In this document: positions 3,962 to 53,660 of the stretch, in pieces
Numbering within the stretch: the first letter of the stretch is position 1
Layout: the number at the start of each line of letters is the position of its first letter
Virus genome (UHGV): UHGV-0036148
DNA: 55,727 nt
Strand: one strand, 5' to 3'
Source: a virus
Program-made: the position numbers and the translations under genes
The notes under the pieces: generated by a model
Told to the model about the DNA's origin: nothing
Seen by the model: only the letters and a program-made list of their open reading frames with translations
Database searches by the model: none

Positions 3962-4120
3962 AATGCTCTCTCCTTTTAAGGTGATTTCTACGCATTTCAG
4001 CGCTGCCGGATTTTTAAAGAGCATTTTGCTTGCTTGAAGTATACAAAATGGATACGTGTAAACAAGACGAATAGCGCCATTATGTGATCCACATCACGCA
4101 ATGGCGCCATTTTGTAAATT

Positions 4121-4909
4121 TCAGTCCGGCAAAACGCGGTTGAGCGTAGTACGATTGATGGCCCTGTCGTTAGCCAGGAACACAGCACGGGCAAAGCCGC
4201 GCGGCGTTAGTGAGCGGATCATCTTAGTGCGTTTCGACTTTCCTCCCAACTTCGCGTGCTGCTTACTGTCTTCCCATTCGTCCGGCATTGGCACAGGCCG
4301 GAACAGCGGCTGTTTAAATCCGTTGCCGCACCAAATACAAGTTTTCTTCGTGTATGCGTCGCGGGCCGCTATGTATTCAGGGAAGGCAGGATGTTTGTCA
4401 TCTTCCGGCAGGTAGCCACCGTAAGCGCACGGGTTGAAAATAAAATCAGGTTTACGCCATAGCGTTGACAGTGCGCCCACCGGATTTTCCACCATCCACG
4501 GCACGTTATACATATTCGCCAGTTTTTCTACCAATTTTGCGTTATACGCCGCCTTTACCTGGAAAGCAGGATCTTTTTTTCGCTTATCAGCGAACCAGCG
4601 AGCACCAGACACAGCGAGATCGTCGCACGGCGGAAAGCCCAATATAATGTCAGGTGCTGGATAAGAAGATAATTCAGGCGAGAACATTGCCAGGAAATGG
4701 CTGTCAATCCACACGTTAACGTATTCAATATTCGGATGAATGATTTTAACGCCTTCATAATCGCCGTGATTTGCGCCGTCATAGTTGAAGCAATAGCACT
4801 TATATCCTGCTTCCGCCCAATCTTTAACGGCGTACCCGCTGCCGTCGTACAGCGACCACACAACCCAACTTCTAAGCCAATTATTTAACCAGTGTTTAGC
4901 CTTGCTCAT
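4121..4909 (-). CDS. putative DNA C5-cytosine methyltransferase-like protein
   Basis: LYDGSGY (motif I-like), GFPPCDD (PC motif IV-like), MVENPVG (ENV motif VI-like); short, no obvious target-recognition domain. Confidence 0.45.
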   Translation of the reverse strand: MSKAKHWLNNWLRSWVVWSLYDGSGYAVKDWAEAGYKCYCFNYDGANHGDYEGVKIIHPNIEYVNVWIDSHFLAMFSPELSSYPAPDIILGFPPCDDLAVSGARWFADKRKKDPAFQVKAAYNAKLVEKLANMYNVPWMVENPVGALSTLWRKPDFIFNPCAYGGYLPEDDKHPAFPEYIAARDAYTKKTCIWCGNGFKQPLFRPVPMPDEWEDSKQHAKLGGKSKRTKMIRSLTPRGFARAVFLANDRAINRTTLNRVLPD

Positions 4910-5451
4910 TTTCTGCCCTCAAACGTGAAATAGCGGCGCATGATGATAGTGATCACCGTTACCGCTGCCATTTTTGAGATGAATTGCATAGCTGATATTT
5001 CAGGCATAAACGCCATAAACGATAGCGTGGGGAAAATCAACGCATCGCCAATGGCTGACGCTATATTTGCAGGCCAGCGTTTCGAATCGAAATCACCAGG
5101 CAAAACCCGGTAAACACCGCCAGATATAAGCGCACCGGAAACAACCGCGACGAATGACGCGATTGCCACCATCCCTGCGTCATAATTTATCAGCACCGTG
5201 ATCGCGCCAGCGGCGGCGCATGTTGTAGCCGACCATTTCAGGCCGCCGTCATATAACAGAAAGTCGCGGATCATCATATTGACACACACTACGGCTACCG
5301 TGGTGATAGGGATCACCCACGGTCCGCAATGGTTAACAATAAGGTTGATGATCACGAAAACGGCGACATAAACGCAGGCCAATAACCTGTCAATTGCCAC
5401 CTTTTTCATTTGGGTCATACCTCTTATCGCGAATAGCTTCAGATCTGTCAA
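4906..5451 (-). CDS. multi-pass membrane protein
   Basis: several long hydrophobic segments (VYVAVFVIINLIV, ITTVAVVCV, IASFVAVVSGALISGGV, AVTVITIIM). Confidence 0.45.
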   Translation of the reverse strand: MTDLKLFAIRGMTQMKKVAIDRLLACVYVAVFVIINLIVNHCGPWVIPITTVAVVCVNMMIRDFLLYDGGLKWSATTCAAAGAITVLINYDAGMVAIASFVAVVSGALISGGVYRVLPGDFDSKRWPANIASAIGDALIFPTLSFMAFMPEISAMQFISKMAAVTVITIIMRRYFTFEGRK

Positions 5452-5887
5452 AACTCAAATCAAGCCGAGTTGAAATACAACCGCATTGAGGGTTAAGCAT
5501 TGAAGGGGGCAACCCCTTACAGCTTGTTATTGCTCCGTCATTTATTATTCCATCATTAATATTGGCGGCAGTGAACTGATTTTTCTTTAGCTCTTCATCG
5601 CGATCATTTAATATTTGCTCCGCTTTTAGTGCGCTGTAGCTGATTAAGTCAACCAAAGTATCAGTAGGGTCAGAACCATTAGCCAAAATGGCCTCTAAAC
5701 GCGCTTCCTTGAGGCAAATCATCAGATCCCATACATCAAGTGGTGTTAAGTTTGCGCCCTTCTTAGCGTTGTATATAGTGGCTATTTTTGGCGCTGATTT
5801 TTCCTCTTTTCTGTCGTAGCCGTTTTGTTTACCTCTTTGCTCTATTGTTTCCGCTGCAAGTCGTAATAAATCTGCTGCATTAGTCAT
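5390..5887 (-). CDS. hypothetical protein
   Basis: ORF between the two methyltransferase genes; start taken at internal ATG after Dam stop. Confidence 0.35.
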   Translation of the reverse strand: MTNAADLLRLAAETIEQRGKQNGYDRKEEKSAPKIATIYNAKKGANLTPLDVWDLMICLKEARLEAILANGSDPTDTLVDLISYSALKAEQILNDRDEELKKNQFTAANINDGIINDGAITSCKGLPPSMLNPQCGCISTRLDLSFDRSEAIRDKRYDPNEKGGN

Positions 5888-6419
5888 TATCTGCACCTCT
5901 TGCATATAGCTCTTTACGTGTTATCTGCGTGAAAATACATTCATGTCTGCACCGTGGATGCCAGATCAAAAACAAGCTCCCTTTGTTGTTTCCGCTCACT
6001 GGCTTACCAGTCGCAGCATTTATAAAAGCCAGCCGCCCGCGCGTGATTAATCGGCATTCGCTTGCCGTCTCAACGCCGTTCATAAACCAGCTAACAGAAA
6101 TGTCAGCGGGCAATAACATTACGCAACCGATGTGGTTTCGGCTGTGTTCAAGCGCCGCTTTATCAACGAATGGCCCCGGGTTCGAATATGGTGGATTCAT
6201 CCAGACATACTCACCAGGCATTGCCACCGCTCCCCACGGATAATGCAACGTGTCCATTTCTTCGGTTATATATCGCGGTATTAATGCGTTTGCTTCGTTT
6301 GCTGCCACATCTGCGACAAACTCGAACTCGCGATCCATTCCTCTAAAAACTGGTTTAGGTGTCTGCCACAGGTCTTTAATTTCCTTCGGCGTACTGCTGC
6401 CTCCAAAATCATTTTTCAT
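5880..6419 (-). CDS. phage DNA N6-adenine methyltransferase (Dam-like)
   Basis: LWQTP ... MNPPYS (NPPY catalytic motif) typical of phage Dam N6-MTases; ATG at 6419 with GGGTGG SD. Confidence 0.7.
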   Translation of the reverse strand: MKNDFGGSSTPKEIKDLWQTPKPVFRGMDREFEFVADVAANEANALIPRYITEEMDTLHYPWGAVAMPGEYVWMNPPYSNPGPFVDKAALEHSRNHIGCVMLLPADISVSWFMNGVETASECRLITRGRLAFINAATGKPVSGNNKGSLFLIWHPRCRHECIFTQITRKELYARGADND

Positions 6420-6431
6420 TATGACCACCCA

Positions 6432-6683
6432 CTAGAAATAGTCCTGTTCCGTTCCCCAACGGTTGTTCAAATATCCCACCAACCAGATAAAACGCTCAAT
6501 ACTGATTAGTGGGGCGACCTTGCGATAATGCTTTTCTAATATCAGCCGCGTAGCTTTATCGCTGTAGCCGTTTCTTTCTACCTCCGCTTTGCAGGCAGAA
6601 AGCGCAGCGCGGGCGGCAGCTTTTACGGCATTAAATTGCAGTTCTGACATATTGAACAAAGCCATAGGATCACCATTCATCAC
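6432..6683 (-). CDS. hypothetical protein (83 aa)
   Basis: ORF in operon context. Confidence 0.35.
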   Translation of the reverse strand: MMNGDPMALFNMSELQFNAVKAAARAALSACKAEVERNGYSDKATRLILEKHYRKVAPLISIERFIWLVGYLNNRWGTEQDYF

Positions 6684-6907: not shown

Positions 6908-7111
6908 TTAAACCTCGTCTATTACACCGCCTTGCACGCGCTCATTAATGTCCCATGTGTGAGATTTGCACACTTCTTGATAATAGTGATCCGGCCTGCT
7001 GCCGAAATACCATTTACCTTCCATATAAAAATAAACGCCCGAAAATATTCCGGGCGCTGCCTTTGTTGCTGATTCTGGAATCTTCCATTCTTTATATTGT
7101 TTAAACTTCAT
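6908..7111 (-). CDS. hypothetical protein (67 aa)
   Basis: ORF in operon context. Confidence 0.35.
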   Translation of the reverse strand: MKFKQYKEWKIPESATKAAPGIFSGVYFYMEGKWYFGSRPDHYYQEVCKSHTWDINERVQGGVIDEV

Positions 7112-18271: not shown

Positions 18272-18347
18272 TCAATATGAGCAAACGGCTTACCAGAAAG
18301 TTTACCGCTTTCTGGTGGCTGTTATCGCGTTTAAAGCGAGGCTGAAA

Positions 18348-18857
18348 ATGAAAACTTCATACCAACAACAAATAATTGATTTTTTAAATGACGCTGTTAT
18401 TTCAGGTGAGGGAACGATAGTTAAATCTATTCCTGGACCGGAAGGTGAAATAATTTGCGCTTTGGATGCTTTGGTTTCTGATGGCGTTATTATAAAAGTA
18501 GATCTAAATAGTAAAAGATTATCATATTGCTTGAAGTCAGTAAGGGAAATGGCGATAAGGGATATAATCCCTTTGTTTTCAAATAGTAGCGGGTATTTTT
18601 CAGCGGAAGATGTTAAGAATGAATTGAATATTAATATAAACAAAGGAAAGGTCGGCAGAATATTGCGGATGTTAGGAAGTGAGAATCTATTAACCGTTAA
18701 TAAGTTTGACGGTAAATATTTTTTCAGAAACGCGCGTTTTTATGGTTATTCAAATGTTGTCGCATTTAATTTTAGTAACTTATTAAACGAATACCGTAAA
18801 GATAACGGCCTACTGCCTGATAAACCAGTATTTGAGATTGAAAAACTTAACGGTTAA
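18348..18857 (+). CDS. hypothetical protein, AT-rich gene
   Basis: ORF with visibly lower GC than neighbours; GAGG SD; no motif. Confidence 0.4.
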   Translation: MKTSYQQQIIDFLNDAVISGEGTIVKSIPGPEGEIICALDALVSDGVIIKVDLNSKRLSYCLKSVREMAIRDIIPLFSNSSGYFSAEDVKNELNININKGKVGRILRMLGSENLLTVNKFDGKYFFRNARFYGYSNVVAFNFSNLLNEYRKDNGLLPDKPVFEIEKLNG

Positions 18858-19914: not shown

Positions 19915-20568
19915 ATGGCAAATAAAACACCTCGCGCAATAGGAAGAATAGTTCATCGTTTCGACACTGATATTCCAAGTTTTGAAGTAACAACGTTTTT
20001 AAGCTATTACGATTTTGGTACTGAGTATTACGCAGGATCTAAGGTTGGCGGCGAGAGTTATACGCTGATGGCTAATACGTGGAGTTTTGTGCGCTACTCT
20101 GAAAAGGATGATGACGGTATGAACAAAGAAAGCGAAATCATTGATGAATTGATCGAAGATGAGCGCCATGATTGCGAGATGCAACCGGAAAAAACGGAAT
20201 GGCGGGCATGTGAAAAACCTCCGGTTGGCGTGTGGCTTGATTGCGTAGGTCTTACGAGCGGAACGGTTCTCGATGTCGTTAAATTTAAGTATATCGGCGA
20301 TAATTGGGCTATCGCTCACAGTAAATTAGTATCAGACATGGAAACAGCAATATCATGGGAAAAATACTCTTACCGCATTCACATTGACCAGAAGGAAAAG
20401 GCGCTCGCTGAAATCGCGTTCGCACTTGCCACTAAGGTAATGGGTGAAGACGCGGCAAGCGAGATTGACTTTAGCTGTGACAACGATTTTACGTGCGATT
20501 ATCGCAATATGGCGCGAGCTATTATTGTTGGATGTATCGGACACGTTGAATACACGGGGAAAAGATAA
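19915..20568 (+). CDS. hypothetical protein (217 aa)
   Basis: ORF in operon; no recognisable motif. Confidence 0.4.
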   Translation: MANKTPRAIGRIVHRFDTDIPSFEVTTFLSYYDFGTEYYAGSKVGGESYTLMANTWSFVRYSEKDDDGMNKESEIIDELIEDERHDCEMQPEKTEWRACEKPPVGVWLDCVGLTSGTVLDVVKFKYIGDNWAIAHSKLVSDMETAISWEKYSYRIHIDQKEKALAEIAFALATKVMGEDAASEIDFSCDNDFTCDYRNMARAIIVGCIGHVEYTGKR

Positions 20569-39499: not shown

Positions 39500-40162
39500 T
39501 TGCTCGCTATTTTCCATTCTTTTTAGTATCTCCATAGCCTCCCTCATTCCATCGTCATAAGCCTTTTTATCCAGTAATACATCTGGTCGTTTTTGTTTGT
39601 TTCTTGCTTCTGGCGGCGTTTTAGCACGCACAGCGGCCCTATATCCGGTCATTGTCATATTCCACGCTTCTGATTCTGATAACCCCAGGTGAGCAACGGC
39701 AGAATAAACAAACTCCAGTATGTCGAACGTTGGTTTGTATTCACCTTCCTGTCTATCGCTTGCGACCTCTTCAGGGCCATCACCAATTAAGCCGTGGTAC
39801 ATGCAGTGTTGCGCCAGCGTAATAACATCATCAACCGGCATTATTCCCGGTTTTAATCTCAATTTACCCGAAGGAGTGAACCTGCATTCGCCCAATAACG
39901 GGCCTGTTTCGTCGTCTGAGCAACATTTCAGTATGTGGATGGATGTTTGTACTATCTCACCATAACACCGCGCCATAATGCGATTGCGGAGGTCTGGATC
40001 TGTGGGTAATCGTGATGGGTATTTGCTGCCGTGGATAAGTGCGAAATATTCGACAAGCTCACTATCGTTGCCGATTTTAGCCATCGCAGCAAAGCAAGGA
40101 TTAAATTCATAGCGCTTACCGTTCACCACAGCCGCAAATTGTCCTGTACGAACATGGATCAT
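39482..40162 (-). CDS. putative tail assembly chaperone (by position)
   Basis: occupies the G/GT position between major tail gene and tape measure; ATG 40162 with AGGGTGA SD. Confidence 0.3.
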   Translation of the reverse strand: MIHVRTGQFAAVVNGKRYEFNPCFAAMAKIGNDSELVEYFALIHGSKYPSRLPTDPDLRNRIMARCYGEIVQTSIHILKCCSDDETGPLLGECRFTPSGKLRLKPGIMPVDDVITLAQHCMYHGLIGDGPEEVASDRQEGEYKPTFDILEFVYSAVAHLGLSESEAWNMTMTGYRAAVRAKTPPEARNKQKRPDVLLDKKAYDDGMREAMEILKRMENSEQEKARD

Positions 40163-40181
40163 AGTATTCACCCTAAAAGGA

Positions 40182-40199
40182 AGGGGCTAAATAGCCCCT
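40182..40199. terminator. hairpin between major tail gene and chaperone (possible attenuator)
   Basis: AGGGGCT-aaat-AGCCCCT stem-loop. Confidence 0.3.
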
Positions 40200-40206
40200 T
40201 TATTGT

Positions 40207-40683
40207 TTATGCGGCAACTGGATCGGTTACAGTTACCTGGCCCGCGCTTTCGCACTCAATGGACCAGGTTGTCACATCATCGTGCGGCGCTTCTTCTTCG
40301 AAAGATGTGCAAAGGAATGGACCCTCAGTCACATCGGTGGGGGTGACGATTTTTAGCCACACGTATGGCTGATTTCCGGTAGCAGTGCCCGGTGACATTA
40401 CATGACGCTTTAGTTCTTTCTGGTTGTGTAGAGCATCACTACGTGATACGCCGTCGCCGGAGAAAGAAACAGATTTGTAAGTGACCAGGGATTCTTTGGT
40501 ATAGTCGGCGGATTTATCAGCGGTGGCGTCTGCGGTTTCCCATTCTACGGAAAGCGTTTTGCCGCGCATCATGCCTAACGCTTTATATGCTTCTTTACCA
40601 GGTTTCGCATTAGGGCAAGCGATAGCAAAGAATACAGCAACGTCACGGCCTGTAAATGAGCCATTTTCGCAAGTCTGAGACAT
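40207..40683 (-). CDS. major tail protein (V-like, by position)
   Basis: 158-aa ORF in the V position upstream of chaperone/tape measure. Confidence 0.5.
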   Translation of the reverse strand: MSQTCENGSFTGRDVAVFFAIACPNAKPGKEAYKALGMMRGKTLSVEWETADATADKSADYTKESLVTYKSVSFSGDGVSRSDALHNQKELKRHVMSPGTATGNQPYVWLKIVTPTDVTEGPFLCTSFEEEAPHDDVTTWSIECESAGQVTVTDPVAA

Positions 40684-40696
40684 GGTTTGTTACCTC

Positions 40697-41083
40697 TTAT
40701 CTAGATATGATAGTTTGAAAAGCTACGGTAAAAATAAAGCGCCCTTCTTTTGTCTGCATTGCAGGAATAGCGCCTACTGGCTTCATGTGTGTAATTTTAT
40801 CAGTTTTATACTCTGTTATCATACTTTGCCGTATAGCGTCGGCGAGATCTTCCACTTCACTGATATTTGCGTCATTACGCGCTGAAATAACCAGGATGCG
40901 GAAATAATCACGGGTTATTGCTTCTTCACCAGCCGCCCCGCCGTTTTGCTGTATGACAATGTATCTGCTGTTATTCGAATTGGATCGCTCATTCCAGAAA
41001 CGGGCCTGCAAAATATAACCTTCGTCGTACCCGTGGGATTTAATCCAATCCCTTATTTCGTCGTATACTTCGCTGCGTTTCAT
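40697..41083 (-). CDS. tail terminator-like protein (U position)
   Basis: 128 aa, position immediately upstream of major tail gene. Confidence 0.4.
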   Translation of the reverse strand: MKRSEVYDEIRDWIKSHGYDEGYILQARFWNERSNSNNSRYIVIQQNGGAAGEEAITRDYFRILVISARNDANISEVEDLADAIRQSMITEYKTDKITHMKPVGAIPAMQTKEGRFIFTVAFQTIISR

Positions 41084-53148: not shown

Positions 53149-53353
53149 CTACGCGGTAAGTCACTGGCGGGATGTATTCGAAATCATCAGAATCAAGATC
53201 AAGCGTCCGGCTGTCGCCGTCATCGTCCAGCGTATTCATCCCTAATTCACCGAAAGGGCCGTACCCAATACAGCCCAGATATTCGCAACCAATCGTAAAG
53301 CCAGGATATTCTCCCTTACACCTGATCTTGTACAGCTTATTTGATGCGCTCAA
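53099..53353 (-). CDS. small protein with poly-acidic C-terminal tail
   Basis: ends ...AEHEDDEDDDD; Cys/Gly-rich N-terminal half. Confidence 0.4.
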   Translation of the reverse strand: MSASNKLYKIRCKGEYPGFTIGCEYLGCIGYGPFGELGMNTLDDDGDSRTLDLDSDDFEYIPPVTYRVVDEFLAEHEDDEDDDD

Positions 53354-53660
53354 TGTTAATTCCCCCTTCCGCGCCCTCAGTCATTTTGTATTCCGCCACC
53401 AGTTCAGCACCGATCAATTCCACTTCATCACCAGGGAACGGAACGAGCGCCAGCGACGCGAAAACAAACTGTTTAATGTGGTTCAGATGGTCAAGGTCTT
53501 TCACGTCAAAAGGCGGTTCCGCTACATCGAAGCACTTAACACATGATTCATCATCAGTTGCTACACGGAAACATGCGCCAGGTTGTCCAGCGAATTGTCC
53601 AAGTTTTTTATTTTCTGCAAAAGTGCCACGGAAAACCTTAACGCTGATAAATTTAGACAT
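53337..53660 (-). CDS. hypothetical protein (107 aa)
   Basis: ORF in operon context. Confidence 0.4.
   Translation of the reverse strand: MSKFISVKVFRGTFAENKKLGQFAGQPGACFRVATDDESCVKCFDVAEPPFDVKDLDHLNHIKQFVFASLALVPFPGDEVELIGAELVAEYKMTEGAEGGINIERIK

Follow-up and report, generated by a model that had tools for sequence, protein, structure and literature searches.

An orphan-methylase cassette with a DpdA-less YhhQ/VUT homologue in a temperate coliphage

Membrane proteins of the YhhQ/VUT family in phages are almost always encoded beside DpdA, a 7-deazaguanine transglycosylase. In the virus genome UHGV-0036148 (55,727 nucleotides, referred to below as the window), a homologue of this family is maintained by selection in a methyltransferase cassette that has no DpdA gene, which raises the question of what substrate is imported and which enzyme uses it. 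We examined the cassette, its relatives and the proteins that it encodes, and we find an orphan-methylase cassette of the ordinary kind in all but one respect, namely a transporter homologue whose presence without DpdA is unexplained.

Layout and conservation of the cassette

The ORF listing bears out the earlier note's description of four co-oriented genes at 4121-6428: the four open reading frames are all located in the same direction on the minus strand, and each overlaps the next. The Dam and DUF6378 genes share 8 nt, the DUF6378 and mini-VUT genes share 20 nt, and the junction between the mini-VUT and Dcm genes is an ATGA overlap. The start of the Dam gene was placed at the ATG at 6419, as used in phage mEp021, the longest open reading frame being 182 aa from a GTG at 6428. 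The start of the mini-VUT gene was placed at the ATG at 5409, based on homologues and the spacing to the ribosome binding site, while a TTG start gives 4906-5451 and 181 aa. The membrane spans of the 181-aa polytopic protein described previously stand, but its length is corrected to 167 aa. The features are as follows.

4040-4120, minus strand: structured intergenic element, directly 3' of the Dcm stop codon (RNA fold)
4121-4909, minus strand: short phage Dcm-type C5-cytosine DNA methyltransferase, 262 aa (motifs I, IV and VI)
4906-5409, minus strand: mini-VUT, a YhhQ-like polytopic membrane protein, 167 aa (family profiles, hydropathy)
5390-5887, minus strand: DUF6378 protein, 165 aa (PF19905)
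5880-6419, minus strand: phage-type Dam, 179 aa (PF05869, TIGR01712, phrog_111, NPPY)

The phage is a temperate coliphage of the mEp021/mEpimmI group. Genes 30-33 of mEp021 (MH706966) have identical content and order, with 89-92% nucleotide identity, and are named in that record as a putative Dam, a hypothetical protein, a putative 6-TM membrane protein and a putative DNA cytosine methyltransferase. Both methyltransferases were thus already named in the published annotation of this group, which gives neither the VUT/YhhQ class, nor the DUF6378 name, nor the link of the Dcm protein to the K42 enzyme discussed below (PMC11893012). The same study mapped nutR1 and nutR2 and assigned the early operon that holds the cassette to nutR, which is rightward and N-dependent (PMC11893012); this contradicts the previous placement of the genes in an early-left operon. 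The genes for NinF, NinG, RusA and Q stand downstream of the cassette.

The cassette ends at the structured element. The RNA fold of this element has a free energy of -27.5 kcal/mol (z -4.24), and none of 200 shuffled sequences was as stable. The element is conserved in mEp021, in MagusPhagus and in the diverged relative L064, and TERM_4 is annotated at its position in the mEp021 record. Since nutR2 has been placed downstream of the Dcm gene (PMC11893012), the element at 4040-4120 corresponds in position to the published nutR2 and the predicted terminator t4.

All four genes were present in 45 of the 48 related IMG/VR loci and also in L064. The dN/dS values across 48 related viral loci were 0.044 for Dcm, 0.040 for the mini-VUT, 0.165 for DUF6378 and 0.068 for Dam, showing that purifying selection acts on all four cassette genes. 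Parts of the set recur elsewhere: the Dcm, Dam and DUF6378 genes are co-located in Dhillonvirus too, and the Dcm and DUF6378 genes in Nafs113.

The two methyltransferases

The identification of the gene at 5880-6419 as a Dam-like N6-adenine methyltransferase was confirmed by full-length matches to PF05869 (E 7.1e-51, 172.7 bits, cut-off 28.1) and to the TIGR01712 equivalog profile (138.7 bits, cut-off 97.05), and the protein is assigned to phrog_111. The catalytic NPPY is located within VWMNPPYSN in the translation and conforms to the (D/N)PP(Y/F) pattern. The protein matches the phage Dam family of these profiles throughout, with no notable difference, and its gene sits in the nin-like region, a common Dam site in temperate phages. 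From the PF05869/TIGR01712 family we take GATC to be its likely m6A target. The window contains 249 GATC sites (observed/expected 1.0), and neither GATC nor CCWGG is depleted or enriched.

The gene at 4121-4909 encodes a C5-cytosine methyltransferase-like protein. No match to PF00145 was obtained for this protein in a Pfam scan at E <= 0.1, and precomputed PF00145 matches were found only in a few of its relatives (P0015, P0107, P0120). Sequence searches of PDB returned sub-threshold matches only, all of them to C5-methyltransferases. The family assignment rests on family profiles (phrog_757), transitive homology and the fold, which is that of a C5-methyltransferase and DNMT3-like. Three motifs are recognized, namely motif I (LYDGSG), motif IV (FPPCD, residues 92-96, with Cys95) and motif VI (ENPV, with Glu141). 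In motif I, SLYDGSG, the residues G23 and S24 are invariant among 26 family members, and the segment aligns with SLFDG of DNMT3B; P93, P94 and C95 in motif IV and E141, N142, P143 and V144 in motif VI are likewise invariant.

The PCD motif, in place of the canonical PCQ, had been taken to leave open a non-canonical activity. The motif itself is real, but the residue after Pro-Cys varies in the family, being T in most members and D only in close relatives of the window protein, and DNMT3B shows PCN in register; the PCD motif is therefore no sign of odd chemistry. An orthologous family member that carries PCT, 60% identical to the window protein, produced 5mC as shown by LC-MS. The proposed lack of a target-recognition domain appears overstated: the stretch of about 65 aa in the motif VIII-IX slot (residues 161-226) has a mean column identity of 0.69, as compared to 0.69-0.71 in the catalytic core, and it is short like that of DNMT3. 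Genes of this family were identified in about 1500 phage records (about 3%), nearly all of which have no VUT gene. We conclude that the enzyme is a member of a very widespread phage Dcm family rather than an odd catalyst.

We compared the window Dcm to the enzyme of phage K42, which makes 5mC as determined by LC-MS, triggers retron Ec86, is encoded by a 711-bp gene and has the residues C82, E128, K175 and K176 (bioRxiv 10.1101/2023.08.16.553469). The K42 genome is 95.4% identical to that of KarlJaspers (Bas06), and it is the K42 Dcm that has been characterized (bioRxiv 10.1101/2023.08.16.553469). The window Dcm is 60% identical to the KarlJaspers Dcm over 232 aa (E 1e-102), and its catalytic Cys, the Glu of its ENV motif (E141) and its KK pair are in register with the four K42 residues. 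The proteins share the DNMT3-like fold, the short length class and phrog_757; the window Dcm differs by a 13-aa N-terminal extension, a 15-aa C-terminal tail and PCD for PCT. The phages also differ, since the window phage is temperate and N/Q-regulated, whereas K42 and KarlJaspers (Drexlerviridae) are virulent and T1-like. Because the Dcm has a characterized orthologue that triggers Ec86, we predict that this retron senses the mEpimmI prophages, which are reported to be common gut residents, and that these prophages methylate both phage DNA and host DNA.

For the orthologue, the evidence suggests but does not prove a CCWGG-like target. It was deduced in the K42 study from the host Dcm and from msDNA mutants (bioRxiv 10.1101/2023.08.16.553469). 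The retron is not triggered in the dcm+ strain MG1655 when the phage enzyme is lacking, so this deduction does not settle the specificity of the K42 enzyme; in a literature search, we found no target sequence determined for the short phage Dcm family beyond this study.

We also considered CmoX (PDB 8yf3), a phage DNA cytosine C5-carboxymethyltransferase that is recognized by SPPC, the Cx-SAM-binding Arg (R350) and a neighboring CmoA (PMC12783734). The identity of the window Dcm with CmoX is not supported: the defining SPPC is replaced by FPPC, no residue was assigned as the counterpart of R350, there is no adjoining CmoA or ligase and no CmoA-like gene among the ORFs scanned, and the Dcm orthologue makes 5mC.

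The membrane protein and the DUF6378 protein

The HMM classification proposed earlier for the membrane protein places it as a homologue of the YhhQ/VUT family. Hydropathy analysis (Kyte-Doolittle) shows 5-6 hydrophobic spans, and 6 TM segments are given for its counterpart in the mEp021 record (TMHMM, Phobius). The protein is assigned to phrog_4899, of unknown function, and gave no direct match in Pfam (E <= 0.1, PF02592 included) or NCBIfam (E <= 1) scans. A profile search yielded 288 relatives, and PF02592 (Vut_1) was matched by 36 of the 40 relatives scanned. In hhalign comparisons over about 140 columns, the family aligned with gp41 of phage CAjan (97.3% probability, E 1.8e-11) and with YhhQ of E. 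coli (92.6%, E 4.5e-7). Neither BLASTP of the mini-VUT against CAjan gp41 nor hhalign of its close homologues alone against E. coli YhhQ was significant, and the link to YhhQ therefore requires intermediate sequences. By family profiles and transitive homology, what was formerly a "hypothetical" or "membrane" protein is thus placed, at the level of sequence, as a homologue of about 160 aa in the YhhQ/VUT family. It would putatively be a small-molecule importer of this 7-deazapurine-precursor transporter family, to which the E. coli queuosine precursor transporter YhhQ belongs.

CAjan gp41 ("YhhQ") and the DpdA-associated mini-VUTs are similar to the window protein in size (about 160 aa) and topology (about 6 TM). 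The core residues R48 and D49 (RD motif), D122, Q142 and K146 are shared with the DpdA-linked mini-VUTs. Only 29 of the 73 positions conserved in these relatives are kept, however, and polar residues have been lost by the replacements D44N, D96S, S114A and S123A. The deletion of yhhQ in CAjan gave no DNA-modification phenotype.

The presence of DpdA near VUT relatives was mapped within 4-5 kb. In 79 of the 80 viral loci, a DpdA-like 7-deazaguanine transglycosylase gene directly adjoins the VUT relative, and in 9 of these 79 pairs the VUT gene precedes DpdA with overlapping ends. The neighbors in the window are instead the methyltransferases and DUF6378. A dedicated DpdA profile run against the 637 ORFs of the window gave a best E of 0.73 and tblastn a best E of 0.05, and together with Pfam and PHROG scans of the early region these searches identified no DpdA or Que (preQ0 synthesis) genes. 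A weak tblastn match at 53262-53489 falls across a pair of unrelated small ORFs and was dismissed as chance. The nearest VUT relatives of the window protein also lack DpdA. Conversely, no Dcm, Dam or DUF6378 genes were identified at the 80 DpdA-linked loci, nor within 5-6 kb of VUTs that are 35% identical to the window protein, from L003-type phages of 95-140 kb. On these two sets, a linkage of VUT and Dcm outside the mEpimmI phage group was rejected.

The 165-aa protein, which had been listed as unknown, stands with its gene and length and can now be placed in the DUF6378 family (PF19905; E 2e-8, 34.8 bits versus a cut-off of 27.1, residues 13-96 of the 171-aa ORF). Its N-terminal domain, about 95 aa long, is conserved and its C-terminal tail is variable; the L064 version is only 99 aa. 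Across diverse phages, R18, D25, E29, S31, K60, R63, D76, D80, Y84 and E90 are invariant. Its word-index homologues are all at least 63% identical, and AF2 yielded a poor model, with a pLDDT of 46.9. A PDB profile search with diverse phage DUF6378 domains returned nothing, and the single sequence gave chance matches only. In other phages, too, DUF6378 genes lie close to Dam and Dcm genes, and they occur also where there is no VUT gene. A relation to MazG-like pyrophosphatases, suggested by the pattern of helices and by the MazG-like gene that neighbors a VUT in locus L003, is not supported (hhalign probability 0.2%).

Readings of the cassette

We consider it likely that the four genes represent an ordinary distal accessory cassette of the nutR operon, with two orphan methyltransferases, a DUF6378 protein and a DpdA-less mini-VUT that probably imports a base. 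The four genes are translationally coupled and belong to the N-antiterminated early operon. The PF05869 Dam would make m6A, likely at GATC by analogy with its family, and the short DNMT3-like Dcm would make 5mC, as its orthologue does. Using SAM, both enzymes would most likely methylate replicating phage DNA as well as host DNA during lytic growth. This methylation may weaken restriction by the host and possibly adjust gene expression; for orphan phage methyltransferases in general, anti-restriction or epigenetic control is the usual interpretation. In BASEL, there was no simple link between methyltransferase genes in Drexlerviridae and restriction resistance. The mini-VUT most likely would still import a small 7-deazapurine-type or related base, which some host enzyme, for example Tgt for tRNA queuosine, or another partner would then use.

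A narrower proposal, which we regard as unlikely but worth weighing, is that the mini-VUT serves translation by importing preQ0, preQ1 or queuine-like bases and thereby raises queuosine in host tRNA, with the methyltransferases as unrelated neighbors. It is in line with the homology of the family to the E. coli queuosine precursor transporter, with the strong purifying selection on the gene and with the presence of Tgt and the full Q pathway in E. coli. The same logic was proposed by Hutinet et al. for phages with genes of the preQ0 pathway and no DpdA, and these authors found YhhQ homologues in phages to be uncorrelated with modification groups. What the phage would gain is nevertheless not obvious, since preQ1 is synthesized de novo in E. 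coli, which also has its own YhhQ. Furthermore, VUT relatives are overwhelmingly paired with DpdA rather than free-standing, and several polar residues that are candidates for the pocket differ in the window protein.

It is improbable that the VUT gene is what evolution has left of an earlier DpdA-VUT pair whose DpdA gave way to the Dcm-type gene, with little function, if any, remaining to it or with some unrelated role in the membrane, for example exclusion. The arrangement of the VUT and Dcm genes equals the overlapping VUT-then-DpdA order of the nine pairs mentioned above, the nearest relatives have no DpdA either, and several otherwise conserved residues are lost. The VUT dN/dS of 0.04 across the 48 relatives is, however, on a par with the low values of Dcm and NinG, the gene is kept in the diverged L064 module and the five core residues are retained; a maintained function is therefore favored.

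We give very little credence to the broader idea that the mini-VUT was recruited away from DpdA and forms, with DUF6378 and the Dcm-like protein, an unrecognized import-dependent route of nucleic-acid modification, or at least a manipulation of 7-deazapurine or queuosine that is independent of DNA modification. Least probable of all is a single DpdA-less pathway of DNA modification, in which a precursor taken up through the VUT would be processed by DUF6378 and the C5-like or Dam-like enzyme would install a non-methyl group: the coupling and co-conservation of the four genes, the enzyme-like invariant charged residues of DUF6378 and the Dcm-like gene in the slot beside the VUT, which in the family is nearly always occupied by a DNA base-modifying enzyme, are weighed against an orthologous Dcm family that makes ordinary 5mC, an altered CmoX signature with no CmoA seen, Dcm and DUF6378 genes that occur apart from VUT, and VUT relatives that do not stand beside these genes beyond the mEpimmI group. 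An import-dependent route, if true, would belong to E. coli prophages that form a common group in the human gut; all four genes were identified in 35 of the 5426 complete E. coli genomes.

Layout and operon setting of the cassette

The window is closely related to the Nus-dependent temperate coliphages of the mEp021/mEpimmI group; between nucleotides 3800 and 6700 it shares 89-92% nucleotide identity with mEp010, mEp554, mEp515 and mEp021. The earlier note's description of four minus-strand genes filling 4121-6428 was borne out by the ORF listing. These are genes of known kinds, already annotated in published relatives; the mEp021 GenBank record contains the same four, labeled putative N6-adenine methyltransferase, hypothetical protein, putative 6-TM membrane protein and putative DNA cytosine methyltransferase. 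The features of the region are:

7034-7058, minus: intrinsic-terminator-like hairpin and T-run (AGCGCCCGGAATATTTTCGGGCGTT TATTTTTATA), upstream of the cassette at the position of mEp021 TERM_3
6432-6683, minus: gene next to Dam on its upstream side, homologous to ipe of mEp021 (phrog_303, "inducer of pleiotropic effects"); 4 nt separate its stop codon from the GTG listed as the Dam start
5880-6419, minus: Dam
5390-5887, minus: DUF6378 protein
4906-5409, minus: VUT-type membrane protein
4121-4909, minus: C5-like enzyme, Dcm
4040-4122, minus: folding RNA element directly past the Dcm stop, coinciding with the published nutR2/t4 position

Dam and DUF6378 overlap by 8 nt, DUF6378 and VUT by 20 nt, and VUT and Dcm at an ATGA, with a Shine-Dalgarno-like purine run preceding each of the four starts. 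The true start of the membrane protein, listed as a 181-aa ORF, is almost certainly the ATG at 5409, since all homologs begin there, which gives 167 aa.

The cassette is followed on its 3' side by a NinF-like gene, NinG, RusA and the Q antiterminator, and preceded on the same strand by the ipe homolog, SSB, an ERF recombinase and a CI-like repressor, beyond which lie replication genes and the integrase region. In the mEpimmI phages, nutR1 is located upstream of the N-like gene gp17, and nutR2 with the predicted terminator t4 directly 3' of the cytosine methyltransferase gene (PMC11893012). The 80 nt past the Dcm stop in the window fold with -27.5 kcal/mol (z -4.24) into an outer stem, UACAAAAUGGCGCC...GGCGCU...UUUUGUAUA, and an inner GUGAU-loop-AUCAC hairpin. 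This fold is kept even in a diverged relative with the same four genes, L064, where the inner part has changed. The published map and the conserved fold therefore put the cassette last in the first segment of the rightward early operon that depends on N, and not in the "early-left operon" to which it had been assigned.

A cytosine methyltransferase of the retron-triggering family

Searches of the window Dcm against Pfam and NCBIfam gave no match, while phrog_757, "DNA methyltransferase", was matched at 4e-89. The family comprises more than 7700 homologs of about 227-260 aa and was found by tblastn in 1516 of 50,697 phage records, with carriers that include Drexlerviridae, Dhillonvirus, large phages of the Vequintavirinae type, Klebsiella siphophages and 9NA. 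Motif I (DGSG), Pro-Pro-Cys, ENPV and the RSLTPRG motif are invariant in a 26-member alignment. Together with the PF05869 and TIGR01712 matches of Dam, these results uphold both methyltransferase assignments of the earlier note.

Two further suggestions about the C5-like enzyme found no support. Its PCD motif had been taken to leave open a non-canonical activity, but the residue after the Cys varies across the 26 members, being T in most and D only in the window protein and its nearest relatives. The family profile aligns in register with DNMT3B "SLFDG...SPCNDLS", so that variation at this position is normal in the fold class. A target-recognition domain had been thought missing, but the stretch separating motif VIII from motif IX, although short (about 65 aa), is as conserved as the catalytic core, which suggests that family members recognize DNA in one fixed, common way rather than lacking such a domain. 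The signature of the carboxymethyltransferase CmoX, SPPC together with a neighboring CmoA (PMC12783734), is not seen here: the window Dcm has FPPC, and no CmoA-like gene was found among the ORFs scanned.

An experimental anchor is provided by phage K42, 95.4% identical to KarlJaspers/Bas06, whose 711-bp dcm gene is the trigger of retron Ec86 (bioRxiv 10.1101/2023.08.16.553469). In that study, Dcm-dependent 5mC was detected on msDNA by LC-MS, C82, E128, K175 and K176 were named as active-site residues, and a CCWGG target, not firmly established, was inferred from the host Dcm and msDNA mutants. We located the KarlJaspers gene at 40087-40797 of MZ501090 (711 bp). The encoded protein and the window Dcm share 60% identity (E 1e-102), with all four K42 residues in register. 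This homology makes the window Dcm a member of a 5mC-forming family that has been characterized experimentally. This newly drawn tie predicts that the window phage would be sensitive to retron Ec86.

A mini-VUT membrane protein outside its usual pairing

The membrane protein has no direct family match in Pfam or NCBIfam, and a word-index search returned only 12 homologs. An exhaustive profile search recovered 288 relatives, and 36 of the 40 scanned match PF02592 (Vut_1, the YhhQ family), so that the HMM classification proposed in the earlier note places the protein in the YhhQ/VUT family via its relatives. The family profile matches E. coli YhhQ with 92.6% probability and CAjan gp41, a 159-aa "putative preQ0 transporter" in the CAjan 7-deazaguanine cluster, with 97.3%.

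Among 80 IMG/VR loci with relatives (L078-L157), 79 have a short gene resembling DpdA, the 7-deazaguanine transglycosylase, directly beside the mini-VUT on the same strand (DpdA first in 70, the reverse in 9). The genes nearly always abut, with a median of 36 nt between HSP ends, and the pair recurs in four small metagenomic contigs (L063, L068, L069, L071). The paired proteins are about 240-256 aa (DpdA-like, no Pfam TGT match) and about 160 aa (mini-VUT), and no preQ0 synthesis genes were found within 4 kb. The arrangement resembles a minimal module for "import and insert" of 7-deazaguanine. The adjacency in these loci and contigs thus strongly associates the mini-VUT family, at the level of gene neighborhoods, with supplying a 7-deazaguanine base to DpdA.

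Placing the membrane protein in this family is new, and the copy in the window is a strongly conserved, DpdA-less exception. A DpdA profile built from 80 sequences and searched with filters off reached E 0.73 at best among all 637 six-frame ORFs, tblastn queries with FolE, QueC, QueD, QueE and three DpdA-like proteins found nothing in the window, and neither did family scans of its early-region ORFs for DpdA and Que genes; the window is about as long as complete genomes of the mEpimmI group. DpdA is also absent within 5 kb of the nearest VUT relatives (54%, 46% and 35% identical). The gene is nevertheless under strong purifying selection (dN/dS 0.04) and retains the core polar residues N22, R48, D49, N115, D122, Q142 and K146, while lacking other residues conserved in DpdA-linked members. 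A DNA-modification phenotype is absent in CAjan ΔyhhQ. YhhQ homologs in phages show no correlation with modification groups (Hutinet et al.). In large phages (L003:4710-7198, on a phage contig of about 95 kb, and L051-L055), a VUT homolog 35% identical to that of the window is flanked by DNA ligase and a MazG/PRA-PH-type NTP pyrophosphohydrolase, with no DpdA, Dcm or Dam within 5-6 kb.

DUF6378, Dam and the coherence of the cassette

The gene described as unknown encodes DUF6378 (PF19905, above the gathering score). Conservation is limited to the N-terminal ~95 aa, the tail being variable and absent in L064. Its charged residues R18, D25, E29, K60, R63, D76, D80 and E90, invariant across diverse phages, form a set that appears enzyme-like. 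The domain occurs alone or at the C-terminus of ~267-aa proteins, usually among DNA-metabolism genes. The N-terminal ~175 aa of the longer proteins have no Pfam match, and no profile or fold support was found for their "phosphofructokinase" label in PHROGs and derived annotations. Examples are:

L059:2473-3279: longer protein with C-terminal DUF6378 domain, Salmonella phage 9NA gp29
L062:2485-3288: longer protein with C-terminal DUF6378 domain, Pectobacterium phage Koroua
L057:740-3944: Dhillonvirus gene run, Escherichia phage Ioannina (also L058, Maverick)

The Dhillonvirus run brings Dcm, Dam and DUF6378 within 3.5 kb, in the order helicase, Dcm of the window's family, HNH, hypothetical, Dam (PF05869), HAD-type phosphatase or small ORFs, and DUF6378. 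The last is mis-annotated in the Ioannina GenBank record as a second "DNA N-6-adenine-methyltransferase". In Pantoea phage Nafs113, DUF6378 lies 0.8 kb from Dcm.

The four-gene block is kept in 45 of 48 related viral loci and in the diverged L064 (Dam 53%, VUT 54% and Dcm 61% identical). Outside this lineage, Dcm and DUF6378 are widespread without VUT, and relatives of the VUT turn up where methyltransferases are lacking. One relative, L065-67, lies near a member of a different methyltransferase family, PF01555, which some contigs have and others do not. The cassette is most simply read as a co-location within the accessory nin-like region of temperate phages rather than an obligate pathway. 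In L064, Q is followed immediately by a Lar-like gene for restriction alleviation (PF14354, 8523-8750), a second anti-restriction function in a cassette-bearing phage lineage. Elsewhere in the window, ORFs of 217 aa (19915-20568, plus) and 180 aa (18315-18857, plus) lie in the interval from the DnaB-like helicase/NinB region to the integrase; neither has a PHROG match, which makes them possible moron or accessory genes.

Dam matches PF05869 over its full length (E 7e-51), exceeds the cut-off of the NCBIfam equivalog TIGR01712 and contains NPPY; by these matches it is an ordinary phage Dam, presumably with the GATC specificity of its family. GATC, with 249 sites in the window (O/E 1.0), is neither avoided nor enriched, and CCWGG and CCGG are likewise at expectation. 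Over the whole window, GGCC is moderately under-represented (0.66) and CTAG strongly so, with 22 sites observed against 69.5 expected (O/E 0.32).
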